Of a DNA stretch of 64,000 nt, positions 7,556 through 55,519 are shown piece after piece (the first letter of the stretch is position 1; every line of letters begins with the position of its first letter). A model generated the notes under the pieces. It was not told the DNA's origin. It searched no databases and saw only the letters and a list, made by a program, of their open reading frames with translations. Made by a program: the position numbers and the translations under genes. Source of the stretch: a virus; the IMG/VR virus record IMGVR_UViG_3300045988_050655; one strand, 5' to 3'.

Positions 7556-7837
7556 TTAATGGGTTACACAATAGGCTGCTGCCTCTGATTCTATCTCTGC
7601 CATGCTCTTGCTGCGGTTCTGCATCATCCAGTCTTCCAACTCGCTCTTCTTGAAGTAGAGTAGGTTGATATTCGGCTTGTAGCAGGGGAGTATGTGCTTT
7701 CTGACGTTTTCCCTTACTCCTCGAACCGTCATGCCTAGTATGATTGCAGCTTCCTTAATGTTGAGCACATTCTTTGCTGCTATCAGCGAATACTGCTCGA
7801 TGCGGTCTAGCTGCTCCTTTATCTCTGGGTCTATCAT
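7556..7837 (-). CDS. helix-turn-helix DNA-binding protein (excisionase/AlpA-like)
   Basis: 'LNIKEAAIILGMTVRGVRENVRK' and 'YFKKSELEDWM'. ATG 7837 lies 1 nt after the upstream stop. The track start at 7897 is GTG. Confidence 0.65.
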   Translation of the reverse strand: MIDPEIKEQLDRIEQYSLIAAKNVLNIKEAAIILGMTVRGVRENVRKHILPCYKPNINLLYFKKSELEDWMMQNRSKSMAEIESEAAAYCVTH

Positions 7838-7838
7838 A

Positions 7839-11449: not shown

Positions 11450-11851
11450 ATGGCAGAAATAACTAGCGAACAGAAGTTGTATGTGCTACTGAAATATAAG
11501 AAAGAGCGGACAAAGAAGGAAGAGAAGATTCTTTCTATATTAAATGAGAAGGCAAATCTAGGCTCTGCTGATTTAGAGGAAGCGGACAAAGAATGCTGTA
11601 ATCAAAAGTGGCTAAGCATAGTTCACGTAGTAGAAGAATTGGGTTATACAACAAAGTGCTCTCACAGAATAGAACTATCTGAGTCTGGTGAATCTCAGAT
11701 AGAAAAGTTCTGGAGAGAATCTAAGTATAACCCTGATAATGCGTGGAAGTCTAGAGTTGTAAAATTGTCTTCTGTAATTACGGCAATAATCTCGTTAGTA
11801 TATTTCCTAGCGTGGTTATGCCAATTAATACAAAACTCAGTAAGAAAATAA
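11450..11851 (+). CDS. hypothetical protein with C-terminal TM anchor
   Basis: Soluble N-terminal domain followed by 'VITAIISLVYFLAWLCQLI'. Confidence 0.5.
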   Translation: MAEITSEQKLYVLLKYKKERTKKEEKILSILNEKANLGSADLEEADKECCNQKWLSIVHVVEELGYTTKCSHRIELSESGESQIEKFWRESKYNPDNAWKSRVVKLSSVITAIISLVYFLAWLCQLIQNSVRK

Positions 11852-17285: not shown

Positions 17286-17957
17286 ATGTTAGGAGCATTA
17301 ATTGGGGCAGGTCTTGGACTTGCAAGTAGTATCGCTGGTGGTGTAGCTAACCGCAAGGCGAGACGTAAGCAGGAGCAGATGATTGCCCAGCAACAGAAAG
17401 AAAATCAGGCATGGTATGACCGAACATACAATGCCGACCCGACCAAGCGTGCTGATACGGTTCGCTTGCTCACACAGATGCAGGAGCAGATTAAGAACAG
17501 AAACAAGGCTGCCAAGGGCAGACAGGCGGTGATGGGTGGTATGGAAGACTCCACTACTGCGGTGAAGGAGGCGAACAACAAGGTTCTTGCTGATACTACC
17601 TCACAGATTGTGGCTGCGAATGAGTCTCGCAAGGATAATATCGAGCAGCAGTATAGAGAGCGCAAGAATCAGTTACAGAACCAGCAGATGGGCATTGAAG
17701 CTGAGAAGGCTGCTGATACCGCTAATGCGGTGGCTGGCGTGGCTGGTACTGCTGCCAATATCGCTGCAACTATTGATAGTGGTGCTGGTGGAGCAAAGAA
17801 GGCTCCGAATATGAATGTGACTCAGGAGCAGTTGAATGGTATTGCCAAGAATCCGAATGATGTTCTTGGCTTGAAGGCGAAGACTACTGGGCTACCATCG
17901 CAAGGTGAACTGAATAGTCTTGGCTTGAAATTGCAAGAACAGAAAGTAAAAGCATAG
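17286..17957 (+). CDS. putative virion internal protein (Gly-rich hydrophobic N-terminus, Q/A-rich coiled coil)
   Basis: Composition and position as the first gene behind P2. No family recognised. Confidence 0.6.
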   Translation: MLGALIGAGLGLASSIAGGVANRKARRKQEQMIAQQQKENQAWYDRTYNADPTKRADTVRLLTQMQEQIKNRNKAAKGRQAVMGGMEDSTTAVKEANNKVLADTTSQIVAANESRKDNIEQQYRERKNQLQNQQMGIEAEKAADTANAVAGVAGTAANIAATIDSGAGGAKKAPNMNVTQEQLNGIAKNPNDVLGLKAKTTGLPSQGELNSLGLKLQEQKVKA

Positions 17958-28000: not shown

Positions 28001-31000
28001 GCTGACTATGGCGGCTACACCAACCGAGAGAGATTGATTGTCCGTGCGGTTCGTGATGGCAAACTCCCTGAAAAGCCAAAGAAGATGGCACGCAAGAGCG
28101 GATGGTATGAAGCTGTGGCTGATATTATCCCGACCCTGACCGAGAAGAAGAATGGTGTGGCTCCTTGGATGGATATTCGATTGAAGGCTGATGGCATTGA
28201 CTGGCGAAACATTGACAAGCCATTATATGTGATGGGTAGTGCCTATGCTGACGGAAAGGTTCCTCATGCCTTCGCTGATGAACTGCTGCCTACACTCCGA
28301 ACCAAGAGCGGTGATGTGATTGTGATGCCTGATGGCAAGGTATATCGTGCCATGGGCAGAGTGCTCGCTAGAGTATCAGGAGTGAGCGATGATTACAAGA
28401 TGCCATTCTCTGAGAATCTGAGCCATACCATCATCGGCAACGGAATCCCTACTCAGTTGACCGAGCATGTTATTGCTCCTCTGCTTACTGGCTCCGACCC
28501 TAAGTTTAGCATCCGTACCTATCACGGCACTGGTGCTAGCTTTGACAAGTTCGATTTATCTCATGCCTTGGAAGGCGAGGGAAGTGAGAGCTTCGGTCAT
28601 GGTGTGTATGTTACCAACTCTAGCAAGATTGGACGTGAGTATGCCCAGAGAGCAAAGAATAGAAAGATGGAAGACCTCTATAAAAATATGCGCTACCCTG
28701 ATGGGGTGAAGGGCGATATTTTCAAGAGAAGAGTCTTTGGTGAAATGGTGAACGATGTGGCTACTGGCGGTAGTGTGGCAAGTGCCAAGGAGTTTGCCAA
28801 GAAACGTGTCGGTGCTGATGCCAATGATATTCAGCGTACCCTTGAAAACTTGAAGGATAGAGAGAAGGGAACTGAGTATGAACAGAACTTGAAGGATAGA
28901 CTTGCAGAGTATAAAGAAGGCTTGAAGTGGATTGATTCTCTTGATGAAGATTATCTTACCCAAGGGAACGCTAACAGATACGATGTGGATATTCCTGATG
29001 ATAACGGTGAAAATTACCTTGGATGGAATGAGTCTCAAAACTTCCCATTGGAAAAATGGTACAGACTATGGGAAATAACTCATGAAGGGTTTAATGAAAA
29101 CGAGTATTTCAAAGATGGTGGAGCGAGATATGATATAGATAGGATTGAGCGTATCACCCAAATGAAACTTGAATCGCCAGAGAATGGTATGCAGAGACTT
29201 CCTACATTAAAAGGTGAAGCATTGTATCATGCTTTGGAAGACTTCTTCAACCGTGAAAGACCTTCGTATGGTGCAGAATTAGCATCAAGGGCTTTGAGTG
29301 AAATAGGTTTTGTCGGTATCAAGTACCCTGCTGGAATGATTCATGGCGGTGCTGAGGAAGGAGATTACAACTATGTGATATTCGATGAGAACAATGCCAA
29401 TATCGTGGGTAATACCCGATTCTCCTTGCGCTATGACCAGTTTGAACACGACTTGAACCAGTGGAAGAAGGATAATAATCTGCCTAAGGATGCCCAGCGA
29501 CCAACCATCCCACAACGCAACGCTGGCGAGAGTGCTGCTGCATTCTTGAAGAGAGTGGATGAGTACCGCAAGCAGATGGCTCTTTGGAAGACTGCTCCAA
29601 CATACGAGCAGCATCTTCTGAGTGATGATACTGCCCTTGGAGAGTTCAACCGAGAGTTGCAGCGTGGTTCCGTGCTGAAACGTATCGCCTTCCAAGATAG
29701 TATGCTGGCTATCCGCAAGGCTCAGGAAGCTATCATGAAGGAAGTTGGTGTTGACCGCCTGAATATGGCTGAGGATGCCTATACTGCCGAGAACCGGAGT
29801 CACGGCAAGGGAAAGAATGAGTTTGAGGAGTACAATAATGAGTTCTTGCAGCCATTGAGAAAGGCTTATCACCAGATGAAGAAGATACTTGGTGATAGCT
29901 ACGATAATGTCCGTATCTACATGATGGCTAAGCATGGCTTGGAGCGTGATGCCCAGATGGCATTCAAGAAGTCACTGGATGCTGACTTTGAGGATGTGGC
30001 TCAGAGAAGTGCGGCATACAGGGCTTACAAGGGCGATATGAACCGTATTACCAATGATAGCGATTTGGAGTTTGGAAGAGTGGATTTCACTACTTGGAGG
30101 CAGAGAGATAATGCTCTCAGAACGAAATATTCTCCTTCCTATATGGACTATCGTTATGATGAGAATGGTATCGCCTACGATTATTCAGGCTTGTCGGCTC
30201 TCTTCGGTGGCTCTGACTTTGAGGAAGCTGCCCACAAACTGGTAAGGGATATTGAGAGTAGTCATGTAGCTGAGGTGCAAGACCTCTGGAATGCTACGAA
30301 TGCGGCTACCAAGAAGATTCTCCGTGATGGCTATAAGGCTGGTATGATGAGCAAAGATACTTATCAGTATGTGCGAGATATGTATAGCCATTATATTCCT
30401 CTCCGTGGCTGGGATGGCACTACTGCCGACCAAGTATGGGACTATATTGGTGGTGGCAAGGGTGCGTTCAATCAGACCTTGAAAACGGCACATGGACGAA
30501 CCTCTATTGCTGATGACCCTATCGCCTACATCGAGAATATGGCAGAAAGTGGAATCCTGCTGAACAACAAGAACTGGGTGAAGCAACACCTGATGCTCTT
30601 GGCTCAGAATCATCCAACTTCCCTGCTGACCCTGAGCAAGGCTTGGTACGTGAAGAGTACGGATGCCAACGGCAACGAGGAGTGGATTCCTGCTACACTT
30701 CAGATTACTTCTCATATGAATAGCAATCAGGTGAAGGCTGCTATTGATGCTTTCGAGCAGAAGATGGAGAATATGGCGCAGACTGGCGATGCTACCCAGC
30801 AGAGAGAAGGCTTGAATATTGCCTATCCTCAGACTCATAGCGAGGAGAGAGAACATGAGGTAAGAGTGATGAAGGATGGCGAGGAGTATATTATCTATGT
30901 GAATGGTGACCCTCAGTTGGCTCAGGCGATGAACAATACCAGAGCACACCGAGTGAGAGAAATTCAGAGCGGCAAACTGGATAGGGCTGCTGCTTGGTTG

Positions 31001-39272: not shown

Positions 39273-42200
39273 TTATCTACTATAGTTGTAAAGAATATCC
39301 ATATTTTTCAAATTTTGGACTATCCATTTCTCAACCCTATAAATATTATCACAATGTTTGTATTGCTTAATAGGACTATAAATACTGACCTCATGAGGCT
39401 CATTTACAGCTAATGGTTCGGTAGCTTTTATACAAACAAAATTAAAATATCCCATCTGTTCATTCATGCCAAACGAGACTTTATCTCCGACATTATATGC
39501 CTTTGTTGCATCAAATGTTTCAGACAAACTTGTCTGAATATTGCCATTAGTATCTTTAACTACGTTCCAATACTCAGAGCGAACTATGCTATCAGCAATG
39601 CAAGGACTATCATTCCATTTTCTGTATTCTTCCTTAAAGAAGTCTGTTCCAATTCTAAGGCACCAATCTTTCAACAATCCAAATATATTATTTGCATTTA
39701 TTATTCCTTTATCAGCCAATTCTTTATACCTATTACTTAATTCTTCTTGATAATAGTTAACAATAAAACCCTCTGGACGCTTTATAAATGACGATACATG
39801 TGTTGAAAGAGGTTCTGATGTAGAATAACCATGGTCATTAGAGCCAAACGATTGGTCACAGTCATACAAACCTACATATAATTTTACTCCATCATAAGAG
39901 AACCATTGCCAATTTTTTTCAAAACCGTCCGTGTTTTTTATCAAGTCTGAAAGAATTACATAATCTACTAAATTATCAACATCGAAGTACTTTTCAAATA
40001 ATACTTTCATTGCTTGCAAATCTGTTTCAGACTTTGTACCCTCATATTTATCCTTTGCTTCTATCACTTTTGGCAAAGAGTCGGATAAGTTCTCTATTAT
40101 CTGTTTAACTTGAGCTGTGAATAAAAGATTCTTCTTTATCTTTGATGATATTTCCGTGCCATCAGGAAGTGTTCCTGATGTTATCCAAGAATCGACCTCT
40201 GTTTGTCCTGCAATCTCTTCTTGTCTAATATCTGCATCATATTTGTTACCGCCAATAGCATACAATCCCTTGGGGTTACGTATTTCAAATTGACTCCAAT
40301 CTATGTTATCCTTACCTCCAAAGAAAGATGCATGTCCTAATATTCCATCAAGATGTATGTTCTCTGCTACACTCTTGTCCAGATGATAGTTATCTCGATG
40401 CTTCTTTAGCTGAAAAGAGAAGATGCCATAGAACTTACCATTAAGGTAAACAGCACAAGGGAATCCGTCAGGAAAACATCGTGCTCCAGTATCTGTTAAT
40501 AAAGAATAGTCTCCTACATGAGGATTACCAAGACTCTTGGTAGTAAAGCTGATTTTATTCATTTCAACTAACGCTTTCTTCCAAGGTCTGTCATACATAT
40601 TTCCCCTTGTACGTACAATTTGGTCATATAGCTTGTAAGATACAGCACCAACACCACGGAAGAAATCAGTATAATATGCTTTCATGTGAAAGCTGTCCTG
40701 TGGAACCCATTCACCAATTCTTACTTTCGGGGTCTCATCACCAATCCATTCATCATCGCAAAGGTCGATAGCTACACTCTTCTTGATAAATCCCAAAGAA
40801 GAGTTTCCTTGTGCATTAAGAATGGCACGCTTCTTAAAGTAGTTACCATGCATATCCCAAAACTCCAGGAAAGCCTTCTTGTTATCAGTCTTGGTTGTAG
40901 GCATGGAATCAATATTAGAAACATTAATGATAGCAAATCGAGGCTCTGGTATCTGAATGAAACTACTTTCACTCCAATCAACAGGTGTTTTTACATCAAA
41001 GCCATTTGCTTTGAGAGCATCTTGAATATTATTCACACTATTGCCTTGAAGATTGAGGTTTGAAACATCAAGATTAGTAACTTCCATATCATACTCATGT
41101 TTCTTTCCTTGTAAGTCACGGAAAGACATTACTTTTTCTTCTGCATCTATTGTAATTTCCGTTCTACCTTCAGGGTCTTCAATATGGGAAAATTCTGTTG
41201 GAATAGTTTCGGACTTCGCATTGTGGATATAGTGACTGCCATCAGGATTTGTTGCAGAAAGAATCTTTCCTTCTGCATCTTGCTCAACTGCAAGATATTC
41301 CTCGTTATCCTGTAAAGAGAAAACATCAAGAAGCTCTTTGAGATAGACATCTATTGTATCTACCTTCTCCTGCAATGATGCAAGGTCTGATTGAAGCTGA
41401 GATATAACTTGCTTCAAGGCATTGACTGCATGGATTTCACCAATGATTTGTCCGTCTCTTCGGATGCCAAGGAGTACATGATTAGCTGCATCCTGCCAAA
41501 GAGCGAAGAACTCTTCATTCTGCTCCACATGATACATTTCATTGAGAGGGTAGTATGGCTTACCAGTTGCTCTGTAGAAACCAAAGAGAACCTTATCCTC
41601 AGAATCTACTATCGCCTTGATAAACTCTTCATTCTCGATTATTCTAAAGCACTCCTTTACTTCATCTTCAATGAGAGACTTGCCTTCTTCTTTATCAACC
41701 TTTCCTTCCTGCAATGCGGTGATGTTTGCAGATAATTCTTCCTTGACGGAATTAATAGATTCAAGAATATCTGTCTTATCTTGCTGGCACTGGTTGATAA
41801 TCTCCTGTAACTTTGCTCTGATAGGTGCAGGAATACCTTTACCCCACTCAATGGAACCATCAAGCTGAATACCCAAAAGGAAGTGGTCTTCTGCATCTAC
41901 TATTGCCTTGATGAACTCTGGAGATTCAATCTCACGGAATGGAAGAGCAAACTGGGAGACTACTTTATCCTTTGAATCACCGAACTCTTGGGCAATATTT
42001 TCCTTGTTGAACTTTTTGTTTGCAAGTTCATCAATGGCTCCTTGTGCAGTGACAGAATCAAGTCCACTCTCTGTGTTCTCGTATGTTACTGCTGAGGCTT
42101 GGCTTGCACCACCACTTGCGGAAATGCCCTTGATGGCTTCCTCCATCTGAGTACTGCGAGTCTGCAACAATGAAATATCATCATCATTGGCGGTGATTTG

Positions 42201-43106
42201 CTGCTGCTTATCGTCAATCTGAGACTGGAGGTCTGTGTCCTTCTCGTGAAGCTGTTTGATAGACTTGTCTACATCTTGAATCATCTGATTTAAATCATCA
42301 GGGAGACCAGTGGCGGCTTGGATGGTTTTACGAAGCTCTGGGTCGAACTTTCCAATGCTTAGCGTGTTGTCTGCTATCTTTTCGTTTGTGACGGAGCCAT
42401 CCTTGATTTTCTCGGTAGTTACAGAATCGGGAGACAACTTGGCGTTACCGATGCTGCCATCTACTACCTGAGAAGCATCGACTGAATTGTCGGCAAGTTT
42501 GTCCTTGGTGATAGATTTTCTTGCTACCTTCTCTGTGGTTACAGACTCATTGGCGAAATGCTTGGTCTCCAAGGATGCCTCACGAACTACTCTGCCATCT
42601 ACTGACTGGTCGCCCAACTTTGCATTGGTGATAGCCTTCTCTTCTACCTTCTCCGTGGTTACGGCTCGGTCGTTCAGCTTCTCGGTGATGATAGATTCAT
42701 TCTTAATCTTTTCCGATGTTACCGCATTAGGGGAGAGTTTGGAATTGTCTACTGCGCCATCATTCAACTTATCCGTGGTTACTGCCTTATTGTTGATTTT
42801 TTCGGTCTCTACAGATGAGTCGGCAAGTTTGGAGGTGGTGATGTTGGCATCTGCTACCTTGTCGGTGGTGACGGATGCAGCATCCAGTTTGTCGGTGGTT
42901 ACCGATTCATTCTCCAATTTCTCTGTAGTAACGGCTTTGTCGGCAATCTGCGTAGTTCCGAGTTGGTCGGTCTTGTTGACCTTCTCGTCAAGAAGCTCCT
43001 TGGTGGATTTACCCGAACTCTCATCCTTGACATATCTGGTGTATGTCAAGGTCTCGTCGGCTGCTCCACTTACGAGCGTGTTGTTATAAACGGTTTCTTT
43101 TGCCAT
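39273..43106 (-). CDS. tail fibre protein with N-terminal 11-aa repeats and C-terminal CotH-like domain
   Basis: About 18 copies of an 'xxAVTTEKLxD' unit at the N-terminus. The C-terminal ~540 aa carry CotH-like motifs (see finding). Confidence 0.85.
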   Translation of the reverse strand: MAKETVYNNTLVSGAADETLTYTRYVKDESSGKSTKELLDEKVNKTDQLGTTQIADKAVTTEKLENESVTTDKLDAASVTTDKVADANITTSKLADSSVETEKINNKAVTTDKLNDGAVDNSKLSPNAVTSEKIKNESIITEKLNDRAVTTEKVEEKAITNAKLGDQSVDGRVVREASLETKHFANESVTTEKVARKSITKDKLADNSVDASQVVDGSIGNAKLSPDSVTTEKIKDGSVTNEKIADNTLSIGKFDPELRKTIQAATGLPDDLNQMIQDVDKSIKQLHEKDTDLQSQIDDKQQQITANDDDISLLQTRSTQMEEAIKGISASGGASQASAVTYENTESGLDSVTAQGAIDELANKKFNKENIAQEFGDSKDKVVSQFALPFREIESPEFIKAIVDAEDHFLLGIQLDGSIEWGKGIPAPIRAKLQEIINQCQQDKTDILESINSVKEELSANITALQEGKVDKEEGKSLIEDEVKECFRIIENEEFIKAIVDSEDKVLFGFYRATGKPYYPLNEMYHVEQNEEFFALWQDAANHVLLGIRRDGQIIGEIHAVNALKQVISQLQSDLASLQEKVDTIDVYLKELLDVFSLQDNEEYLAVEQDAEGKILSATNPDGSHYIHNAKSETIPTEFSHIEDPEGRTEITIDAEEKVMSFRDLQGKKHEYDMEVTNLDVSNLNLQGNSVNNIQDALKANGFDVKTPVDWSESSFIQIPEPRFAIINVSNIDSMPTTKTDNKKAFLEFWDMHGNYFKKRAILNAQGNSSLGFIKKSVAIDLCDDEWIGDETPKVRIGEWVPQDSFHMKAYYTDFFRGVGAVSYKLYDQIVRTRGNMYDRPWKKALVEMNKISFTTKSLGNPHVGDYSLLTDTGARCFPDGFPCAVYLNGKFYGIFSFQLKKHRDNYHLDKSVAENIHLDGILGHASFFGGKDNIDWSQFEIRNPKGLYAIGGNKYDADIRQEEIAGQTEVDSWITSGTLPDGTEISSKIKKNLLFTAQVKQIIENLSDSLPKVIEAKDKYEGTKSETDLQAMKVLFEKYFDVDNLVDYVILSDLIKNTDGFEKNWQWFSYDGVKLYVGLYDCDQSFGSNDHGYSTSEPLSTHVSSFIKRPEGFIVNYYQEELSNRYKELADKGIINANNIFGLLKDWCLRIGTDFFKEEYRKWNDSPCIADSIVRSEYWNVVKDTNGNIQTSLSETFDATKAYNVGDKVSFGMNEQMGYFNFVCIKATEPLAVNEPHEVSIYSPIKQYKHCDNIYRVEKWIVQNLKNMDILYNYSR
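42345..42947 (-). repeat. about 18 degenerate 11-residue (33-nt) coding repeats in the tail fibre N-terminal rod
   Basis: IADKAVTTEKL / ENESVTTDKLD / AASVTTDKVAD ... TTEKIKDGSVT / NEKIADNTLSI (aa 54-254). Confidence 0.75.
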
Positions 43107-44437: not shown

Positions 44438-46594
44438 CTATATGATGGTTGCTGCCGAAACAGAAACCTTTCTTCTCATTACTCTTGCCTGATTCTGTAT
44501 CATCTTAGGCATTTCCATTTCGTTGAAGCAGATATGGAGTCCGATGGCTCTTGTCATGAGCAAATCATCGTGCTTACCGTCAATGGCTCCGTATGCTCCG
44601 TTCTTCTTACGCTCATAGGTAAGGTACTCATTTAGGCATCGCTGGTCACGTTCAACGTATAGATGCTCTCTGACTACCTGAACCAGTACTGAGATAACCA
44701 TTGGCTTGGTTGCTACATTGGTATGGAATCCGTACTTACGTGGAAGACCTTCCTTAATGTCTGCTTCGCTCTGCTTGCGTGCATAGAGGTTATCGTACTC
44801 ATCCTTGATTTGATTCAGGATGAACTCAGACTGGTCACCACCTTCCAAGATGTGCTCCTTGTCTTTCGTCTCTAAGGTGTTGGATTCAATTACCAAGAGG
44901 GCATTATCGTAGTACTTGGCTATCTGGGCAGCCTTCCATGCCAACAAGTCCATATCTATGTGTCCGTACCATTGGGCTACCACATACGGCTTGCCACCTT
45001 CCATCATCCAATAGCGGTCGAAGACACAGATAACAGACCAGTCTGCCTTGCTACCTCTACCACCAATATCTACTACTACCAGATAGCGGTTGGTTACTTT
45101 GCAATCGTCAAAGTACTCAGGCTTGCTCCATATCCACAACTGCCCAGTCTTGTCTTCCGAGAATCGTACATTCTGTAGGCATTTCTTGCCCTTGTAACCA
45201 TCCCCATATACGTCACCGATGAATTTTGGTGCTCTGCAACCTTTCTTGAACTGGTCAACTTTCTCTTCTGCAAATACCTTGGCTCCTGAGTGCTTGAAAG
45301 CCTCTACTGGGTCAGAAGGGAATCCGCTAGCCATATCTCCGTGGTCAGTGAACTTCTTGCGTTCCACGATATACCAGTTAAGAGCTTCCAACGGTGCTCC
45401 CATCTGCCACAACTTCCAAAGATAAGTTACTGGCTCCTCACGATTCGACATCGTGTTGGTGTTGTTGCGGTTTTCGTATAGCCATTTGGCGAACTCCTCT
45501 TTCTGTTTCTTGCTCTCGAAGTCAAGATGGTAGAGGTCGTAAATCTCAAACCAAGGAACGAAGAACGGCTCAAATACAGATTCACCTTTCTCTGCTGCCA
45601 GCCACTCCTGATGGAAGAAGTTTCCAGTACCATTGGCGGTTGATTCATATACAATCATCGTGTATGGTCGGTAGAGCACACCATTGGTTGCATTCTGGAT
45701 AACCTCCTCAGGAGACTTACCTTCTGTCTTCTCCCATAATCCTACCTCGGAGCAGTGGATGAGGTTGTAATCTTCACCATTTGCAGAAGTAGGTTTCTGC
45801 ATGGAACCTACTTTAATCTTGCAGAATCGCTGAGGAACCTTCTTCACGTTTCCTGATGTTCCAACTCCAACAAACTTAGGCTCGCTATCAGAATATACTT
45901 CGCCCATTTCGTGCAGGAACTTGGTTGGAAATTCCTTCAACGCTTCATCGAACATGCCTCGGATGGTTTCTGCGGTGTCCTTGACCTGAGCAATAATCAG
46001 CGAGTTGAGACCCTTCTGCCACATGAGTTGCAGCCAGAGGAAGTACATCTGAATGACCGTAGAACCTCCCCATTGTCGGGCTTTCAGCAGGATGAGACGG
46101 ATAGGGCGATTTTTCTTTCTTCGCTCCTCCAGCCACCTGAGCAGTCTGCGCTGCGGTCTTCTGAGCACAAAGCGGAAGGGGAGACCTCCACCTTTCGGTT
46201 TGATATAGATGAACGTGGCGAAAAAGAAGAAGGGGTCGTGTTTCATCCTGATGCGAGTGAACTGCTCCACCAGTTGCTCCATTTCTTCCTCTAGGTTGTA
46301 TGGCTCGTCTATATCCTTGTGCAGTTCCTCGATTACTGCCTTGCAGCTACCCAGTTCGATGAGCATCTTGACGAGCGGAATTTTCTTCATCGAAACAGGA
46401 AGCTGCTGTCTCTGAATCGGGAAATCAGGAAGGAAGAGCAGAAATCGCTTGTCTCCACAACCTTCACCCTTGATAGGATTGAAGGGTGTGTTGATTTCCT
46501 TGATGCGTTTCTCGTTCTCTTTCAGGATGCCCAATACGTGTTTGTCTAGAGCATCTGTGAGTTTGGCTTGTGTGGCGGTTACTTGTCTTGGCAT
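44438..46594 (-). CDS. terL: terminase large subunit
   Basis: Walker A-like 'KARQWGGSTV', 'LIHCSEVG' (Walker B-like), 'YESTANGTGN', and a C-terminal RNase H-like nuclease 'VVVDIGGRGSKADWSVICVFD'. ATG 46594; the track extends to 46666. Confidence 0.85.
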   Translation of the reverse strand: MPRQVTATQAKLTDALDKHVLGILKENEKRIKEINTPFNPIKGEGCGDKRFLLFLPDFPIQRQQLPVSMKKIPLVKMLIELGSCKAVIEELHKDIDEPYNLEEEMEQLVEQFTRIRMKHDPFFFFATFIYIKPKGGGLPFRFVLRRPQRRLLRWLEERRKKNRPIRLILLKARQWGGSTVIQMYFLWLQLMWQKGLNSLIIAQVKDTAETIRGMFDEALKEFPTKFLHEMGEVYSDSEPKFVGVGTSGNVKKVPQRFCKIKVGSMQKPTSANGEDYNLIHCSEVGLWEKTEGKSPEEVIQNATNGVLYRPYTMIVYESTANGTGNFFHQEWLAAEKGESVFEPFFVPWFEIYDLYHLDFESKKQKEEFAKWLYENRNNTNTMSNREEPVTYLWKLWQMGAPLEALNWYIVERKKFTDHGDMASGFPSDPVEAFKHSGAKVFAEEKVDQFKKGCRAPKFIGDVYGDGYKGKKCLQNVRFSEDKTGQLWIWSKPEYFDDCKVTNRYLVVVDIGGRGSKADWSVICVFDRYWMMEGGKPYVVAQWYGHIDMDLLAWKAAQIAKYYDNALLVIESNTLETKDKEHILEGGDQSEFILNQIKDEYDNLYARKQSEADIKEGLPRKYGFHTNVATKPMVISVLVQVVREHLYVERDQRCLNEYLTYERKKNGAYGAIDGKHDDLLMTRAIGLHICFNEMEMPKMIQNQARVMRRKVSVSAATII

Positions 46595-47058
46595 AGCGGT
46601 GCATTTAAATATCCCCACAACAGACCAAGTACATAGCAATAGATGTGGACTCCAACTGCCATGCAAGGGAAGAAGATTCCAACACAGATATATAGGAGAA
46701 TGGTGAGATTGTATCTTACCTTATTCTCCACGTAGGGGGCGATAAAGCCCATGTAAGCATAGATAAAGCCGCTGAGACCGATGATTGGTAGGGATGAGGT
46801 GAAGGGATAGCTGACGGCTATGAGATAGAATGCCACCATGTGACCGATGCCGCAATGGATGGCTCGGTAGCATTGATGGAAGACGTAAAGGTTGATGGCT
46901 GCATGAAAGATGTTCTGATGAAAGAAAGGGTAGCTTAGTCGGTTCTGAATAGAACAACCGTCTGAGAGACCCATGCCATCATATCCTAGAAAAGTGATAC
47001 ACATTATTATAATGTACCCAGCATAAAGCGCAATCTTTTCTTTCGTCTCTCGTAGCAT
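46579..47058 (-). CDS. rhomboid-family intramembrane serine protease (minimal 6-TM core, 159 aa)
   Basis: TM2 'HQNIFHAAIN' (H-x4-H-x3-N), TM4 'IGLSGFIYAYMG' (GxSG, Ser96 at 46771-46773), TM6 'VGVHIYCYVLGLLWG' (His138 at 46645-46647). Six hydrophobic segments. Confidence 0.75.
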   Translation of the reverse strand: MLRETKEKIALYAGYIIIMCITFLGYDGMGLSDGCSIQNRLSYPFFHQNIFHAAINLYVFHQCYRAIHCGIGHMVAFYLIAVSYPFTSSLPIIGLSGFIYAYMGFIAPYVENKVRYNLTILLYICVGIFFPCMAVGVHIYCYVLGLLWGYLNAPLCQDK

Positions 47059-47462
47059 CTTTGCTTCTCCTCCTTTCTCACCCTGCTAAGAATTACGTGT
47101 ATGCTTTGAGGAGTCAAGTAGAAACTGGGTGCTTTTTCAGCACATACACGTTTGATGATTTCCATATTACTGAGATATGGCTCATTACTCTTATGAATCT
47201 GGAATCGTCTGAAAATCTCCTGATACATTTCCTTTCGGGTAGGAATCATGTTATCAAGTGGTTTTCCTTTCAGTAAGTCTAATATGACTATATAAGCACG
47301 GTCTTCTGAAACCCAAAATCTTCTGCTCGGAGACTGGGCTAGCTTCTGCTCAATCTCTGAGAGTCTGATATTGTCTCTTACCTTAATAATTTCTTTGTAA
47401 GCCCTCAATAAATCAGCGTCACGTTCCTGTATAAAATAGCATCGTGAATCCTTATATTTCAT
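47007..47462 (-). CDS. hypothetical protein (151 aa; possible small-terminase/DNA-binding role by position only)
   Basis: First gene of the TerL operon. ATG lies 12 nt from a TATATTTG box. Confidence 0.55.
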   Translation of the reverse strand: MKYKDSRCYFIQERDADLLRAYKEIIKVRDNIRLSEIEQKLAQSPSRRFWVSEDRAYIVILDLLKGKPLDNMIPTRKEMYQEIFRRFQIHKSNEPYLSNMEIIKRVCAEKAPSFYLTPQSIHVILSRVRKEEKQRCYERRKKRLRFMLGTL

Positions 47463-47473
47463 ATCTGACCCTG

Positions 47474-47481
47474 CAAATATA
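47474..47481 (-). promoter_or_regulatory. Bacteroides-type -7 box (TATATTTG on minus strand) for the terminase operon
   Basis: Exact match. Very short or absent leader. Confidence 0.45.
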
Positions 47482-47522
47482 CAAAAAAGTATTGAATTAG
47501 TCGCATCCGATTAGATTAAATT

Positions 47523-47563
47523 AACGGATAAAAGATGAAAATCGGAAAAAAGCATTAATTTTG
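47523..47563 (+). promoter_or_regulatory. late-type promoter P4: AACGGATAAAA-N22-TAATTTTG
   Basis: Same 41-nt architecture, upstream of the scaffold/capsid genes. Confidence 0.6.
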
Positions 47564-47594
47564 GGCATTGATTTATAAATTTACACATATATAT

Positions 47595-48410
47595 ATGGAC
47601 GAAAATACAAATATTGAGCAGAATGCTGGTGCTGCAAAACAGCAAGACACCAAGACCAAGAGAGACTTGGCTTTGGAGCGTTTGAAGACCCGCCACCCTG
47701 ACACGGAGTATGCGGATGATGAGGCTATGTATGGGGCAATCAATGATGATTATGATGCCGACCAGAAGGCTTTGCAGGGTTACAAGGATAACGAGAAGGC
47801 GATGGGCGATTGGCTGGGTAGTGACCCTGAGGCGGCTACCTTCCTTCAAGCGATGAAGGCTGGCAAGAGTCCTTACGCTGAGTTGATTCGTACTCATGGT
47901 GAGGATGCCATTGACTACTACTCTGACCCTGACAATGCGGATGAGATTGCATCGGCTCAGTCGGAGTTCTTGCAGAATGCTGCCAACGGCAAGAAATTGC
48001 AGGAGGAGTATGACAAGAACATGCCATCCAGCTATGAAGTATTCGACAAGTTGGAAGAGAAGTATGGCGAGGAAGCTGTGAATGAAGCCATTGACCAGTG
48101 CTTTCAGACAATGCGCAATGTGGTGACTGGTAAGTTTACCGAGGAAATGATTACTGCTTTCATCAAGGCTAAGAACCATGATACCGATGTGGCTGATGCG
48201 GCACATGAGGGTGAGGTTCGTGGCAAGAACAGCAAGCACGTCAAGAACTTGCAGCTACGCAAGAAGGGTGATGGTACTGCCGACCTTGATTCTGCCAATG
48301 CGGAGACCAAGCCAACGGATAACCAGCCTGACCTTGGTGCTGTGGGCAGGGTATCACGAAGGGGTAACGTCTGGGAACGTGGTAACGAGAAGAGAACACA
48401 CATTAGATAA
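47595..48410 (+). CDS. putative head scaffolding protein (acidic, helical)
   Basis: D/E-rich 271-aa protein directly upstream of the capsid gene. The C-terminal 'NVWERGNEKRT' module is shared with 53244-53465. The track start at 47568 is TTG. Confidence 0.55.
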   Translation: MDENTNIEQNAGAAKQQDTKTKRDLALERLKTRHPDTEYADDEAMYGAINDDYDADQKALQGYKDNEKAMGDWLGSDPEAATFLQAMKAGKSPYAELIRTHGEDAIDYYSDPDNADEIASAQSEFLQNAANGKKLQEEYDKNMPSSYEVFDKLEEKYGEEAVNEAIDQCFQTMRNVVTGKFTEEMITAFIKAKNHDTDVADAAHEGEVRGKNSKHVKNLQLRKKGDGTADLDSANAETKPTDNQPDLGAVGRVSRRGNVWERGNEKRTHIR

Positions 48411-48463: not shown

Positions 48464-50005
48464 ATGAAGAAAAGTACATTTAATCGGCTGCTTTCCATCT
48501 TCCTGATGGTTATGGCAGTTATTTTTGGAGTGAATGGTCAGGTTATCATGGCTGAGGCGGCAAATCTGCCTGATGGCGGTAGTACCGAGAGTGGTGCTGC
48601 TGCCGAGGCTGGTGGTGCTCCTGCTGCTGGTGAGGCTGGCAATGGTGGTGCGGCTCGTCAGAGTGAAGGTATCAAGACTGAGACTCAGGGTCGTGAGCAC
48701 TATAACGAGAACGGCACGGAGTATTACCTGAACGACATTGATGAGAAGATTACCAAGATTCGCCCGATGGCTACTCCAGTTGACCAGATTTCACGCTATG
48801 CGACAACCAAGTCTGCCAATTCATTTGTAGTTGAGTATTGGAGTATCGGTACACGTCCTATCAAGACTACCGTGAAGGAAGCAACGGTGGAGAGTACTGG
48901 TACATCTATGGTATTGAAGGTAGAAGACCCTACCATGTTTACGCTGGATGATACCATCCGAGTGGTAGGCGTGAAGGCAATTACCAACTATAAGGGTGTT
49001 GCATATTCTACCATTACTGATGCTCCTACTCCTGATTTGGAACTTTGCGTTTGCGGTAAGGACACAGAGGGCTACCCTATTGTATATGCCGTAAATGGTA
49101 AGTTGATTAACAAGCAGGCTATCGGTGTTCCTGCCTTGAAGAAGGGTCAGAAGCTTATCCGTATGGCTAAGAGTTGTGGTGAAATGGACGTTCAGACGGG
49201 TCGTTTCAACAACCTTCCTGCATCTGAGACCCAGTATTGTCAGAACTTCATGATTCAGGTTGAGCAGAGTACCTTCGACAAGATTGCAGCCAAGCGAGTG
49301 GATTGGGACTTCTCGGACATTGAGGAGGATAGCATCTATGATATGCGTCTTGCCATGGAGGGTACTTATCTCTTCGGTGATATGGCTTGCATCAAGCATG
49401 AGGTTAAGAATGGTTCTGCCCAGTGGTTTACCAAGGGTATCTGGTGGATGGCTGGTAAGGACATTGAGGTAGGTCATGTTGCTACTGCTGATGATATTAA
49501 GAAGGGCTACAACAAGAATGAGCGAGTGATTACCGACTTGGAGTTGGTTGACATTTCCAAGGACTTGTTTGTGGGTACTGGTATCGGCAACAAACGCAAG
49601 GTGATTATCGCTGGTTCTGACTTCGTGAGCGCATTCAGCAAGATTGATTCCGACAAGTTCCGCTTGAAGGACACCGTTGATATTTGGAAGTTGAAGTTCA
49701 AGAGTTGGGAGACTGACTTTGGTGAGGTGCTGATGATTCACTCTGAGTTGTTCGACCTCTTCGGCATGAGTGACTGCGGCTTTGCCCTTGACCCTGAGTT
49801 CTTGGTTAAGCGAGTACACTTGTCTTGGACACGAAACGTGCTCGACTTGAAGGCGGCTGGCATCCGTAACACCGATGCAGTGGTTATTCAGGAGGTAGCT
49901 TGTCTGTACTTGAAGTACCCTAAGGCACATGCTCGTATGCGCCTTGCCAAGATTCCTGAGGAGGTTTCTCAGACAGATGATGCAGAGGTGAAGGCTGCTG
50001 CCTAA
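48464..50005 (+). CDS. putative major capsid protein
   Basis: 513 aa, located after the scaffold-like gene and followed by the strongest terminator in the window. No sequence motif verified. ATG 48548 is an alternative start that removes the hydrophobic N-terminus. Confidence 0.6.
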   Translation: MKKSTFNRLLSIFLMVMAVIFGVNGQVIMAEAANLPDGGSTESGAAAEAGGAPAAGEAGNGGAARQSEGIKTETQGREHYNENGTEYYLNDIDEKITKIRPMATPVDQISRYATTKSANSFVVEYWSIGTRPIKTTVKEATVESTGTSMVLKVEDPTMFTLDDTIRVVGVKAITNYKGVAYSTITDAPTPDLELCVCGKDTEGYPIVYAVNGKLINKQAIGVPALKKGQKLIRMAKSCGEMDVQTGRFNNLPASETQYCQNFMIQVEQSTFDKIAAKRVDWDFSDIEEDSIYDMRLAMEGTYLFGDMACIKHEVKNGSAQWFTKGIWWMAGKDIEVGHVATADDIKKGYNKNERVITDLELVDISKDLFVGTGIGNKRKVIIAGSDFVSAFSKIDSDKFRLKDTVDIWKLKFKSWETDFGEVLMIHSELFDLFGMSDCGFALDPEFLVKRVHLSWTRNVLDLKAAGIRNTDAVVIQEVACLYLKYPKAHARMRLAKIPEEVSQTDDAEVKAAA

Positions 50006-51172: not shown

Positions 51173-53209
51173 ATGGCAAAGAAGAAAGAAAAAGCTAAAT
51201 TGCTATCGTTGAGCAAGGTGATTGATAAGGATGAACTGGATAGCGTGAAGGAGTCGATGAAACGCTTTGACCGACCTTATGAGCGTGCCTTCTCTATCTT
51301 GCTGGAGGCTCAGCGATATTACAACAACATGGATAACTTCCGAAAGCGAAGACTGAGAAACAAGCGATACTGCTATGGAGACCAGTGGGGAGATACCATT
51401 GAGTTTAAAAGCAAGTGTGGCTTTAAAAAGCGTATCAGGGAGGAAGACTATATCCGTGAGCAGGGTAGCGAACCATTGAAGAACAACCTTATCCGTAGGT
51501 TGGTTAAGAATGTGCTGGGTGTGTATCGCTCTCAGAGCAAGGAACCGACATGCAACGCTAGAGATAAGGATGAGAAACGATATGGCGAGACCATGAGCGT
51601 GGTGCTGCAATGTAACCGACAACTGAACCGAGAGACGGAACTGGATGCCCGAACCATGGAAGAGTTCCTGATTAGTGGTGCTGCTATCTATAAGAAAAAG
51701 TATGGATGGCGAAGGGGGAGGCTGGATTGCTGGACGGACTACGTGAATCCGAACAATTTCTTCATAGATAACAATATGAGGGATTTCCGTGGTTGGGACG
51801 TGAGTTGCTTGGGTGAGGTGCATGATATTACCATCGGTAACGTGCTGAGAGAGTTTGCCAAGTCTCCTGCTGAAGCTAGGAAGTTGAAGGAGATATACAG
51901 ACTGGCAGCTAACCGTGATTTCGTGATTGCTGATTGCACCAAGCGATTCGGTGAGTTCGACCCTAGGACTATTGACTTTATGAATCCTTCTAACCCTTCA
52001 CTCTGCCGAGTGATAGAGGTTTGGCGCAAGGAGAGTAAACCGAGATACCGATGCCACGACTACAACAATGGCGATGATTTCAAAATTGATATTGAGGATA
52101 AGGCTGATATTGTAGATGCAGAGAACAGAGACAGAATCAGGCGAGGTATGGCTGCTGGCATGATGGAAGAGGATATTCCTCTGATTGATGCCGAATGGTT
52201 TATGGATGATTACTGGCATTTCTACTATCTTTCTCCTTTCGGTGATATTCTGAGAGAAGGAGAGACCCCTTATGCTCATGGTGAGCATCCATATTGCTTT
52301 AAGTTCTATCCGTTTATTGATGGTGAGATTCACAGCTTCGTGGAAGATGTGATTGACCAGCAGAGATACGTGAACCGACTTATCACGATGTATGACTTCA
52401 TCATGAGGGCGAGTGCCAAGGGTGTGCTGCTCTGTCCTGAGGATTGTCTGCCTGATGATATGAGTTGGGATGATTTCTGCGATGAGTGGAGTAGGTTCAA
52501 TGGTGTGGTGAGATACAAGCCAAATAAGAGCGGTCAGGTTCCTCAGCAAGTGGCGAACAACTCTACGAATATCGGTATCGGTGACTTGCTCAGCTATCAG
52601 TTGAAGTTCTTCGAGGATATATCGGGAGTGAATGGTGCGCTGCAAGGTAAACCAGGAGTATCGGGTACGAGCGGTTCGCTTTATGCCCAGCAGACACAGA
52701 ATGCTACCATGTCGCTGCTTGATATTTTGGAGAGCTTCAGCCAGTTTATCATTGATGGTGCTTACAAGACTGTGAAGAATATGCAGCAGTACTATGACGT
52801 GGCTCGAAACTTCAATATCGTTGGTAGGGCAGGACAGATTGTACACTACGACCCTAAGAAGATTAGAGACGTGGAGTTTGACATCAACATCACGGAAAGT
52901 ACGGTTACTCCTGTATACAGACAGATGGCGAATGAGTTCCTTATGACCTTGTGGCAGAATCAGGCTATCACGCTGGAGCAGTTGCTGCAAGTAGGAGATT
53001 TCCCATTTGGAGAGGAGTTGCTGCAATCGGTTGCATCCAACCAGCAAGCCATTCAGAATGGTGAGACTCCACAAGGATTCTCTCCTCAGCTTCAAGCCCA
53101 AGTTGCTCAGGCATCACAGAGCAATCCGAAGGCTCAGGCGATGTTGCAGCAGATGATGAGCGGGCAGGGAGTGAGTCCTGATGGACAGAATCCACCGCTG
53201 GCGGCATAA
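51173..53209 (+). CDS. portal protein
   Basis: 678 aa. The C-terminal region 'YDPKKIRDVEFDINITESTVTPVYRQMANEFLMTLWQNQAIT' resembles podovirus-type portal/connector proteins. Q-rich tail. Assigned by pattern and context. Confidence 0.7.
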   Translation: MAKKKEKAKLLSLSKVIDKDELDSVKESMKRFDRPYERAFSILLEAQRYYNNMDNFRKRRLRNKRYCYGDQWGDTIEFKSKCGFKKRIREEDYIREQGSEPLKNNLIRRLVKNVLGVYRSQSKEPTCNARDKDEKRYGETMSVVLQCNRQLNRETELDARTMEEFLISGAAIYKKKYGWRRGRLDCWTDYVNPNNFFIDNNMRDFRGWDVSCLGEVHDITIGNVLREFAKSPAEARKLKEIYRLAANRDFVIADCTKRFGEFDPRTIDFMNPSNPSLCRVIEVWRKESKPRYRCHDYNNGDDFKIDIEDKADIVDAENRDRIRRGMAAGMMEEDIPLIDAEWFMDDYWHFYYLSPFGDILREGETPYAHGEHPYCFKFYPFIDGEIHSFVEDVIDQQRYVNRLITMYDFIMRASAKGVLLCPEDCLPDDMSWDDFCDEWSRFNGVVRYKPNKSGQVPQQVANNSTNIGIGDLLSYQLKFFEDISGVNGALQGKPGVSGTSGSLYAQQTQNATMSLLDILESFSQFIIDGAYKTVKNMQQYYDVARNFNIVGRAGQIVHYDPKKIRDVEFDINITESTVTPVYRQMANEFLMTLWQNQAITLEQLLQVGDFPFGEELLQSVASNQQAIQNGETPQGFSPQLQAQVAQASQSNPKAQAMLQQMMSGQGVSPDGQNPPLAA

Positions 53210-54151: not shown

Positions 54152-54415
54152 ATGACTCCAAACGTACGTGAAGGATTGCAATATGGTACAGCCATTGGAA
54201 TGGTAGTGAGCGGCATCGTCCTCGCCTTCCTATCATTCTTTCTGAACAACTATATTATTTCGGATGGTGTGCTCTGGTACATCAGCCAAGCGTTGGTTTA
54301 CTCTGGGGCTATCTTCGGAGTAAACATTTATTTTAAGACCAAATTAGGTAACTTTGAGAGTAAGGTGAAGGACGAACTCGCAAATATGTTGAAACAAGTA
54401 AAGGAAAGCAAATAA
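54152..54415 (+). CDS. putative holin (2 TM, charged C-terminus)
   Basis: 'YGTAIGMVVSGIVLAFLSFFL' and 'VLWYISQALVYSGAIFGVNIYF', then a K/E-rich tail. Stop lies 1 nt before the endolysin start. Confidence 0.6.
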   Translation: MTPNVREGLQYGTAIGMVVSGIVLAFLSFFLNNYIISDGVLWYISQALVYSGAIFGVNIYFKTKLGNFESKVKDELANMLKQVKESK

Positions 54416-54416
54416 T

Positions 54417-54974
54417 ATGAGGGTAACAAGAGAACAGATTTTGGCGATTATGCCGAATGCGAAGGCTAAGGTGGATGCTTTTCTGCCTTACATCAATGGT
54501 TATGCCGATACGTATCAGATAGACACTCCTAAGCGTATGGCTCATTTCTTGGCTCAGATTGCACATGAGAGTGGCGAACTGAGATATACCAAGGAACTCG
54601 GCAACAAGAACTATTTCCACAAGTATGATGTGGGTAAGTTGAAGAATATGCTCGGCAACCTGAAAGATGGTGACGGCTATAAGTATCGTGGCAGGGGCTT
54701 GATTCAGATTACTGGCAGGGCGAACTATCAGGCTTTGCAGAACAGCAGAGAGGTGACTGACGATATTATGGAGCATCCTGAGTTGCTGGAGCAGCCAAGA
54801 TACGCTACCAAGAGTGCCATGTGGTGGTGGTGGAAGCACGGCTTGAACAAACTGGCTGATAGTGGCAGTTTCGTTGCTATCACCAAGACCATCAATGGCG
54901 GTACTTACGGTTTGGAACATAGACGCAAGTACTTGAAGATGGCTTTGGCGGCTTTTGAAGTGGAATCTAAATAG
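54417..54974 (+). CDS. endolysin, glycoside hydrolase family 19 (chitinase-like)
   Basis: 'MAHFLAQIAHESGELRYTKE', 'YRGRGLIQITGRANY', 'AMWWWWKHGLN', 'TINGGTYGLEHR'. Confidence 0.85.
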   Translation: MRVTREQILAIMPNAKAKVDAFLPYINGYADTYQIDTPKRMAHFLAQIAHESGELRYTKELGNKNYFHKYDVGKLKNMLGNLKDGDGYKYRGRGLIQITGRANYQALQNSREVTDDIMEHPELLEQPRYATKSAMWWWWKHGLNKLADSGSFVAITKTINGGTYGLEHRRKYLKMALAAFEVESK

Positions 54975-54982
54975 GTTGGCTT

Positions 54983-55519
54983 ATGAAGATAAGATGGTAT
55001 GATGAGCAGTTGTGGAGCAGACTTGCACTGGCGGTTATCGTTGGACTGCTGGCGGTGTTTCTGTTTACAGGATGCAAGTCTTCGTTCCACGCTACGAAAC
55101 AAAGTGTTTCTAGCAAGGAAACAGATAGTTCCATGGTTGAAACCAAACAGAACGTGCTTAGATGGGATTCCATCATTAAGCGTGACAGCATCTATGTAAG
55201 GGATAGTGTGGCAACAAGACAAGTGGGCGATACCATCTTCACCGACCGATGGCATTGGGAATATATCTATGACTTCTTCCAACTGGAGAAGATGAACTTG
55301 GAGAGCAATCAGCAGCAGGATTTTCGGTTTATCGCAAGGGCTGATACCATCAGGGTTCCCTACCCAGTGGAGCGGAAGCTGACAAAGTGGGAGGAGTTTG
55401 AATTGGAATATGCTGCATGGGCGATGGGTGCTACCTGCGTGCTGCTGGTATTGCTAGGGCTTAACATTTATAGGAGAATCAAGAATGCGAGATATACGAA
55501 TATCAATCAACAGAGATAA
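54983..55519 (+). CDS. putative unimolecular spanin (N-terminal lipoprotein signal plus C-terminal TM)
   Basis: 'LALAVIVGLLAVFLFTGC' lipobox-like signal and C-terminal 'AAWAMGATCVLLVLLGLNIY'. Directly after the endolysin. Confidence 0.6.
   Translation: MKIRWYDEQLWSRLALAVIVGLLAVFLFTGCKSSFHATKQSVSSKETDSSMVETKQNVLRWDSIIKRDSIYVRDSVATRQVGDTIFTDRWHWEYIYDFFQLEKMNLESNQQQDFRFIARADTIRVPYPVERKLTKWEEFELEYAAWAMGATCVLLVLLGLNIYRRIKNARYTNINQQR

Follow-up and report, generated by a model that had tools for sequence, protein, structure and literature searches.

The intramembrane serine protease GlpG of Escherichia coli and Haemophilus influenzae (PF01694; MEROPS S54) has a core of six transmembrane (TM) helices, in which an HxxxxHxxxN motif lies in TM2, a GxSG motif at the start of TM4 and a catalytic histidine in TM6. 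We analyzed a gene for a small protein of this family in a viral DNA of 64,000 nucleotides (IMG/VR record IMGVR_UViG_3300045988_050655; this whole stretch is called the window below), where it lies next to the gene of the terminase large subunit (TerL) and where its presence, in a comparison of related loci, followed that of a hydrophobic N-terminus on the major capsid protein. The phage protein shares with GlpG the motifs named above, a conserved glycine (G145) at position +7 from the TM6 histidine, the arginine of the WR motif in loop L1 (R40 in the phage protein, nearly invariant among its relatives) and a predicted N-in/C-in topology. It differs from GlpG in its length (159 residues versus about 180 for the GlpG core), its low sequence identity (15–19%), a shortened L1 in which the tryptophan of the WR motif is not kept, the lack of an N-terminal cytoplasmic domain (the protein starts at TM1) and the presence of Cys141 at position +3 from the histidine in place of the first glycine of the TM6 GxxxG. 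It is also encoded by a phage, in a packaging operon.

Among curated rhomboid subfamilies, the similarly small rhombosortases (TIGR03902) were matched best, by 34 of 60 members of the phage family with a best E-value of 2e-10. Assignment to the rhombosortase equivalog was rejected, the relatives scoring 17–33 bits against a cutoff of 84 and the window protein giving no match at E ≤ 0.01. The GlpG equivalog models (TIGR04239/NF008155) were matched by 5 of the 60 members, with P0215 at 16.9 bits against the TIGR04239 cutoff of 250. Whereas the partners of rhombosortases carry a C-terminal GlyGly-CTERM, the candidate partner in the window has an N-terminal hydrophobic segment. On reading the products of 11450–11851 and 54983–55519, no Gly-Gly was seen before a C-terminal TM segment, although no dedicated search for GlyGly-CTERM was made. 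In Providencia stuartii, the rhomboid AarA trims a short N-terminal piece beside the TM segment of TatA and so activates the protein (PMC3712462), a likeness to the processing considered here for the capsid protein. The two cases differ in that TatA is N-out/C-in and the capsid anchor is predicted to be N-in, and in that AarA has seven TM helices and is a cellular gene product.

The prohead proteases HK97 gp4, T4 gp21 and lambda gpC, whose genes lie in head and packaging modules, cleave an N-terminal extension off the capsid protein in the course of assembly; one of them, lambda gpC, is a relative of SppA, a membrane signal-peptide peptidase. The arrangement in the window resembles theirs, since the rhomboid gene belongs to the head/packaging module and the capsid protein has an N-terminal extension beyond its fold. 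The three prohead proteases differ from the rhomboid in being soluble and acting inside the prohead. To our knowledge, none of them is an intramembrane enzyme, nor is a signal-anchor-like segment present in any of their capsid substrates.

Rhomboids have already been annotated automatically in phages, and the compact enzyme of the window is a new variant of a known family. Metagenomic "GlpG-like" proteins of 155–172 residues assigned to Podoviridae or Caudoviricetes belong to the same family as the window protein, and BFVD has rhomboid-like entries of Podoviridae, Siphoviridae, a giant virus and an uncultured phage (the last named "rhombosortase"). For Stenotrophomonas phages DLP5 and DLP3, a 175-residue rhomboid is counted with the moron genes and lies away from the terminase (PMC5834331, PMC7326821); it was not recovered by tblastn with the window protein. 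The initial annotation of the window, made by reading the sequence, had not known rhomboids as a standard function of phages; the database entries show that phage rhomboids had been recorded before, but no functional study was found. Full-text literature searches returned nothing on a rhomboid in a terminase operon, on the function of a rhomboid in any phage or on a link between rhomboid and capsid, and the paper on BV01/Salyersviridae does not mention a rhomboid. The strict coupling of the rhomboid to a capsid protein with a signal-anchor-like start is, as far as we found, unreported.

Identity and predicted structure of the rhomboid

The gene and its active-site elements were located as follows.
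46579–47058, minus strand: gene for a rhomboid-family protease, 159 residues, ATG start, six TM helices and a short L1 loop.
46891–46920, minus strand: TM2 motif HQNIFHAAIN, residues 47–56, with H47, H52 and N56 on the oxyanion-hole side; invariant and aligned with GlpG.
46771–46773, minus strand: codon of Ser96, within G94-L-S96-G at the start of TM4; an invariant column aligned with GLSG of GlpG.
46645–46647, minus strand: codon of His138, near the outer end of TM6, with G145 at +7; aligned with the TM6 histidine of GlpG.

In the translation of the open reading frame (ORF), residues 93–104 were IGLSGFIYAYMG and residues 135–149 were VGVHIYCYVLGLLWG, and the counterpart of the serine motif in GlpG, GGLSGVVYALMGY, was visible in HMMER alignments. 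When searched alone, the window protein reached 12.8 bits with Pfam Rhomboid (E = 0.14; gathering score 22.6), its match to H. influenzae GlpG had an E-value of 0.21, and there was no PHROG match. A single sequence was thus too weak, and significance was obtained from family profiles alone. At least 68 clusters at the 90% identity level shared 49–94% identity with the window rhomboid, one of them with 3702 member sequences. For a profile built from 36 full-length relatives, the match to H. influenzae GlpG had an E-value of 3.2e-7 and that to E. coli GlpG one of about 2e-3, the catalytic motifs being aligned in register, and PF01694 was matched at E < 0.1 by 31 of these 36 proteins (best E = 1.6e-5). 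When this profile was run against 1.84 billion representatives, it retrieved 641 clusters (50% identity level) at E ≤ 1e-3, 252 of them at E ≤ 1e-10. Among the 150 clusters listed, nearly all were 150–185 residues long; of 146 representatives, nearly all had HxxxxHxxxN near position 49 and GxS[GA] near position 98. The profile of 135 relatives, which were 21–94% identical to the window protein, aligned with chain residues 11–188 of H. influenzae GlpG, and so with each of the six TM helices, at E = 2.3e-10; for E. coli GlpG the E-value was about 1e-7. The sole invariant columns among the 135 sequences were H47, H52, N56, G94, S96 and H138, which were also invariant in the 36-member alignment and which we take to correspond to H145, H150, N154, G199, S201 and H254 of E. 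coli GlpG. The ratio of nonsynonymous to synonymous substitution rates (dN/dS) against relatives was 0.11–0.18, and the gene is under purifying selection.

The structure of the window protein was predicted with AlphaFold on a 60-sequence alignment (pLDDT 91.4, pTM 0.87); this model replaced one from a shallow 36-sequence alignment, for which the pLDDT was 56. TM helices were modelled at residues 2–23, 50–66, 71–82, 96–109, 113–129 and 135–152, with an L1 helix at 37–45. In a Foldseek search of the PDB, the best 23 matches, namely all those with a probability of 1.00, were GlpG or iRhom structures, with TM-scores of 0.58–0.66. The predicted cytoplasmic side carried a mean of 8.4 lysine and arginine residues, located at the N-terminus, in loops 2 and 4 and at the C-terminus, versus 1.8 in the periplasmic loops, and the inside exceeded the outside in 135 of 135 relatives. 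This distribution indicated an N-in/C-in protein, like GlpG. S96 opens TM4 and H138 is three residues into TM6, and both helices run from the outside to the inside; in this predicted topology, Ser96 and His138 face the same, periplasmic side.

These results bore out the initial annotation in its central claim, a minimal rhomboid encoded beside the terminase, since the family profiles matched GlpG, the predicted fold was GlpG-like and the catalytic residues were invariant. The 159-residue ORF, its three motifs and the codon positions of Ser96 and His138 were all confirmed on the sequence. The six hydrophobic segments described there corresponded to the six TM helices of the AlphaFold model, to which a short loop helix is added. 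The two checks proposed there also came out in its favor: the profile match was significant for family profiles, with the window protein by itself below the Pfam gathering score, and the predicted topology placed Ser96 and His138 on one face, at the ends of TM4 and TM6. The overlaps at both ends of the gene were likewise found, amounting to 52 nt with the start of the rhomboid gene for the upstream gene at 47007–47462 and to 16 nt for TerL, whose ATG at 46594 lies within the end of the rhomboid ORF.

We conclude that 46579–47058 is a real gene for a rhomboid-family intramembrane serine protease. As judged from its conserved residues, the protein is very probably an active protease. That the ORF is no gene, or that a hydrophobic ORF resembles rhomboids by chance, would agree with the weak Pfam and PDB matches of the single sequence, but this was refuted by the profile matches, the structure prediction, the invariant catalytic residues, the low dN/dS and the occurrence of the gene on hundreds of contigs, and its probability is negligible. 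The family, at about 160 residues, ranks with the smallest rhomboids whose active site is intact and may be a useful minimal model for work on structure and mechanism.

Association of the rhomboid with the capsid N-terminus

The comparison of loci involved the following features of the window.
48464–50005, plus strand: major capsid protein, 513 residues, with an SU10-type HK97-like domain at residues 83–493 (Pfam SU10_MCP, E = 1.8e-27).
48464–48553, plus strand: capsid residues 1–30, a candidate membrane anchor and rhomboid substrate, with a basic tip, a hydrophobic stretch and Met-Ala.
48554–48709, plus strand: capsid residues 31–82, an acidic Gly/Ala-rich linker of variable length with a conserved GIxTExxGR at its end, as defined by alignment.
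47007–47462, minus strand: basic protein of 151 residues, a candidate small terminase (TerS-like protein), conserved 5' of the rhomboid gene in all loci examined.
44438–46594, minus strand: TerL, 718 residues from the ATG at 46594 (PHROG 2, E = 4.7e-20).

The capsid anchor was first flagged by a hydropathy scan of the ORFs of the window, in which it was the sole TM segment among the head-module proteins. It opens with the basic tip MKKSTFNR, which is followed by an uncharged hydrophobic stretch of 21 residues, with small ones at its end, and by a Met-Ala that is invariant; residues 1–82 as a whole fall outside the SU10_MCP domain. Across this capsid type the hydrophobic segment is about 17–30 residues long and ends in small residues and a conserved Met. 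The extension was conserved in 8 of 8 aligned rhomboid-carrying phages, and the anchor was present in all 120 closest homologues listed except P0296, P0319 and P0344, which were called as cut at the N-terminus; it was also present in the most distant rhomboid lineages (L105 and L106). Phage SU10 has neither a rhomboid nor a capsid N-terminal extension. For capsid codons 2–30 the ratio of nonsynonymous to synonymous polymorphism (pN/pS) was 0.35, indicating that the anchor codons are translated and constrained. The anchor is preceded by a mean of 2.8 lysine and arginine residues and followed by 2.7 aspartate and glutamate residues; by the positive-inside rule, such positive charges before it and acidic ones after it predict an N-in/C-out orientation, like that of a signal peptide. 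Irrespective of the rhomboid, it is odd that the capsid protein of a tailed phage should start like a signal peptide or signal anchor and continue with a flexible acidic linker. On one IMG/VR contig (L049) there is an apparent frameshift in the anchor region, and on a genome-bin contig (L108, 2763–3278) there is one in the C-terminal half of the rhomboid gene; these could be assembly errors or decaying copies.

IMG/VR was scanned with a TerL alignment, and 80 diverse loci were taken out of at least 588 matches; these supplied a rhomboid-less outgroup. The ORFs of each locus were searched with hidden Markov models for the rhomboid, the capsid protein, TerL and the upstream protein, and loci holding both the upstream gene and the capsid gene were counted, reference loci included (n = 76). 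The rhomboid and the hydrophobic capsid N-terminus were both present in 54 of the 76 loci and both absent in the other 22, and there was no discordant locus. In the rhomboid-less loci, a homologue of the upstream protein lay directly before TerL, which it overlapped by 34–62 nt. This arrangement suggested that the upstream protein is a small-terminase candidate and that the rhomboid gene was inserted into a TerS–TerL pair. Examples are L152, with the two genes at 5531–5974 and 5929–8043, and L158, L167, L170, L172 and L190; in these loci the upstream gene encodes 141–149 residues. The length of the overlap with TerL is about equal to the unusually long overlap of the upstream gene with the rhomboid gene elsewhere.

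The anchor-less capsid proteins were of one type, with at most 31% core identity to the anchor-bearing type and 57–90% among themselves. The TerL proteins of rhomboid-less phages, in contrast to these capsid types, were 61–77% identical to those of rhomboid-bearing phages, and some of them were closer to rhomboid-bearing than to rhomboid-less TerLs (77% versus 68% for L164, and 75% versus 69% for both L190 and L193). Changes in rhomboid presence were counted by Fitch parsimony on neighbor-joining trees. The TerL tree required 8 changes (7–10 in 59 bootstrap replicates) and the upstream-protein tree, a single tree without bootstrap, also 8, whereas the tree of the capsid core required 1 (1–2 in bootstraps). 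The few changes on the capsid tree and the many on the other two indicated that the rhomboid follows the capsid type and not the terminase genes. From this sequence comparison, the rhomboid probably has a function linked to the anchor-bearing capsid module. The known physiological substrates of prokaryotic rhomboids are few, and comparative genomics here nominates a specific one, whose gene lies about 1.4 kb from that of the enzyme.

In the rhomboid-less loci L170 (4398–4601, minus strand) and L172 (4462–4662, minus strand), an ORF of 66–67 residues was seen between the scaffold and capsid genes. Its product resembles the Gly/Thr-rich capsid N-terminus of the same phages and looks like a partial duplication of it.

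Possible roles of the rhomboid

The overall best explanation, with a probability of roughly 0.5, is that a compact and intact rhomboid processes or releases a membrane-anchored capsid protein. The capsid precursor would be targeted to the cytoplasmic membrane, or tethered there, via its N-terminal anchor; the rhomboid would cut in or beside the anchor; and the capsid domain would then be released for head assembly, or assembling heads would be released from the membrane. In its fullest form, in which the capsid protein is made as a membrane-anchored precursor, heads start on the membrane and the rhomboid is the maturation or release protease that removes the anchor within the membrane, this explanation is put forward tentatively, at somewhat less than even odds. 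If true, it would introduce a new class of head-maturation enzyme and a membrane-tethered capsid assembly in a tailed phage, with the first intramembrane protease known in tailed-phage morphogenesis and a rhomboid using a substrate of signal-peptide-like (N-in) topology. The initial annotation had named membrane proteins of the phage, among them the TM-containing virion proteins, as possible substrates. The general idea of a virion protein was retained, in that the comparative evidence favors the capsid protein at 48464–50005, but this protein was not in its list of candidates.

Several points weigh against a rhomboid that processes the capsid protein. We infer both the membrane insertion of the anchor and its direct cleavage by the rhomboid from sequence comparison, and the latter has a chance just below one half. 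Canonical rhomboid substrates are N-out/C-in, whereas the capsid anchor is predicted to be N-in/C-out. With an N-in anchor, the capsid domain should in principle leave the cytoplasm, and complete export of the capsid protein would be senseless in a tailed phage. Since the hydrophobic stretch is followed by small residues that look like a signal peptidase I site, the cutting could be done by the host signal peptidase, and the conserved Met after the anchor could be an internal start giving an anchor-less isoform. Furthermore, the anchor-less capsid proteins form one clade, so the association corresponds to one or two events on the capsid tree, and its weight comes from the mixing with TerL and TerS-like lineages, as deduced solely from neighbor-joining trees.

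The predicted N-in topology would be easier to reconcile with an active rhomboid that acts on host membrane components or leftover peptides and not on the capsid precursor. Such an enzyme could clear capsid signal peptides after signal peptidase has cut, unjam the Sec translocon, or cut a host envelope protein late in infection. The anchor does resemble a Sec-type signal peptide, with a basic n-region, an h-region and a c-region of small residues, and the co-occurrence of the rhomboid with the anchor-bearing capsid protein would still be accounted for. Signal peptides are normally cleared in bacteria by SppA or RseP and not by rhomboids, which speaks against the first variant. Known bacterial rhomboids cut host membrane proteins, as AarA does with TatA (PMC3712462), but none of the present data indicates a host target, and the gene is in the late structural operon and not in a lysogeny or moron region. 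We therefore regard this possibility as unlikely. The substrate could also be another protein specific to the anchor-bearing head type. A non-proteolytic role, in which the protein is a membrane tether or adaptor for terminase or the TerS-like protein and makes DNA packaging membrane-associated, would agree with the overlaps of the gene with the TerS-like gene and TerL at its two ends, and with a fusion of the TerS-like protein to the rhomboid (P0069, on 9 contigs), which fits a cytoplasmic partner at the N-in terminus. For a pure scaffold, however, it would be unexpected that the six catalytic and oxyanion residues are the sole invariant positions in 135 sequences, and the presence of the gene tracks the capsid type and not the TerL or TerS-like lineage; this role is most improbable.

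It was also considered that an active rhomboid cuts another phage membrane protein, namely a gp14-like virion protein or a holin-like or spanin-like protein of the lysis cassette. The first of these is encoded as follows.
17286–17957, plus strand: T7 gp14-like internal virion protein, with a Gly/Ala/Ser-rich N-terminal TM segment and then RKARRK (Pfam T7_gp14, E = 9.8e-6).
The Pfam match of this protein scored 26.0 bits against a cutoff of 27. The protein begins MLGALIGAGLGLASSIAGGVANRKARRK; positively charged residues are lacking ahead of the TM segment and clustered behind it, and the segment is predicted to be N-out/C-in, which is classical for rhomboid substrates of the TatA type; the protein is also conserved in Bacteroides phages BF1-TP2 and BS-TP4. 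T7 gp14-family proteins are widespread in phages without a rhomboid, however, and so need no such enzyme. Among the lysis proteins, the spanin-like one is of type I topology, with a lipobox and, at its C-terminus, a TM segment that carries a basic tail, but the lysis genes had no detectable homologues in BS-TP4 and BF1-TP2, which have other types of lysis cassette, yet the rhomboid is conserved there. Neither the gp14-like protein nor the lysis candidates explain the association with the capsid type in 76 of 76 loci, and a substrate of this kind is thus quite doubtful. The holin (54152) and the spanin-like protein (54983) had been proposed as substrates in the initial annotation, and that proposal did not hold for these related phages. 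Lysis timing as the leading role was dropped, since the lysis genes are not co-conserved with the rhomboid.

As observations on these candidate genes themselves, the TM segment of the gp14-like protein is glycine-zipper-like, and its gene is followed by one for 370 residues and by a giant ORF, an order reminiscent of an ejection-protein cassette. The lysis cassette (54152–55519, plus strand) contains an 87-residue two-TM holin-like gene at 54152–54415, a GH19 endolysin at 54417–54974 and, at 54983–55519, a 178-residue protein with the lipobox LFTGC and a C-terminal TM segment, which is the architecture of a unimolecular spanin.

Gene neighborhood, distribution and other genes

The remaining features of the head module were the following.
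47463–47594, no strand: intergenic region from which the TerS-like/rhomboid/TerL operon and the scaffold/capsid/portal operon diverge, seen in the gene layout.
47595–48410, plus strand: scaffold-like protein of 271 residues, named from its position (PHROG 22323, function unknown).
51173–53209, plus strand: P22-like portal protein of the same head module (PHROG 156, E = 1.6e-88).

The divergent layout recurred in homologous loci, the scaffold-like gene adjoined the capsid gene in all loci, and the portal homologues of relatives carried the Pfam domain P22_portal. The order of capsid and scaffold-like genes on one side and of a gene for about 140–165 residues, the rhomboid gene and TerL on the other was found in every context examined, namely in three isolates, in eight relatives from the database with identities as low as 24%, and in 87 loci from genomes or IMG/VR. 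In most lineages the rhomboid gene overlapped the upstream gene by up to 40–52 nt and TerL usually by 10–16 nt. From its place in the late structural operon, the rhomboid gene is presumably expressed late. The 151-residue upstream protein had no match in Pfam or the PDB and belongs to PHROG 27246, of unknown function; it was named a candidate small terminase from its position. In one lineage, an identical 292-residue protein (P0069) on the 9 contigs mentioned above was an in-frame fusion of the upstream protein and the rhomboid. The fusion suggests that the two proteins are linked physically or in function and is compatible with the N-in topology of the rhomboid. A programmed −1 frameshift in the 52-nt overlap, which would fuse both proteins, was considered and rejected, since no canonical X XXY YYZ slippery site was found on reading the sequence; P0069 thus seems to be a gene fusion particular to its lineage.

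Close relatives of the rhomboid gene were found on at least 210 IMG/VR contigs, many of 60–66 kb, and prophage copies were found in the chromosome of Segatella copri HDE04 and in Prevotella genome bins. The relatives on contigs of this length and the prophage copies indicated that the window is essentially the whole of a temperate Segatella/Prevotella phage of about 64 kb; its marker genes are those of TerL, the P22-like portal, the SU10-type major capsid protein, the GH19 endolysin and an ORF of 4641 residues. Among 50,697 deposited phage genomes, three carried a rhomboid homologue, with 29–35% identity: Bacteroides phages BS-TP4, BKO1-TP3 and BF1-TP2. Tblastn searches of these records with capsid, portal and distant rhomboid queries returned the same three phages only. 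The three are temperate phages described in PMC12694917, in which the rhomboid is not mentioned. The distant family members P0121, P0114 and P0148, used as single queries, had no IMG/VR match. The TerL of the window was 47–59% identical to its homologues in the Bacteroides phages and 24–28% to annotated TerL genes by tblastn; the nearest annotated TerL outside the lineage (MW202692, 28%) was too remote to be informative. These results showed that the rhomboid is a conserved gene of a large lineage of Bacteroidales phages. Since BS-TP4, BKO1-TP3 and BF1-TP2 can be cultured, the question of enzyme and substrate is directly testable. The lineage comprises abundant temperate human-gut viruses of Bacteroides and Segatella/Prevotella, and a phage-specific membrane protease, if it is essential to them, would be of practical interest.

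In GenBank, two of the three homologues are labelled "rhomboid domain-containing protein" and "rhomboid family intramembrane serine protease"; the third, that of BKO1-TP3 (PQ571269.1, 37361–37879), has the wrong label "glycoside hydrolase". In each of the three Bacteroides phages, the TerL gene bears the incorrect name "tail spike protein" (PQ571269.1, 37872–39986; PQ571277.1, 20340–22436; PQ571263.1, 40117–42144).

Elsewhere in the window, the giant ORF of 4641 residues occupies 19085–33010 on the plus strand. Its homologues in relatives have 3.6–5.9 thousand residues, with Pfam matches to LPD1 and Kinase-PolyVal (L014), and one is annotated as "DarB-like antirestriction"; the product is probably an injected polyvalent protein. 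A tail-fibre-like protein of 1277 residues is encoded at 39273–43106 on the minus strand and has a CotH kinase domain at residues 1029–1165 (Pfam CotH, E = 2.6e-10). A single tRNA gene, tRNA-Met with anticodon CAT, lies at 7151–7228 on the minus strand.

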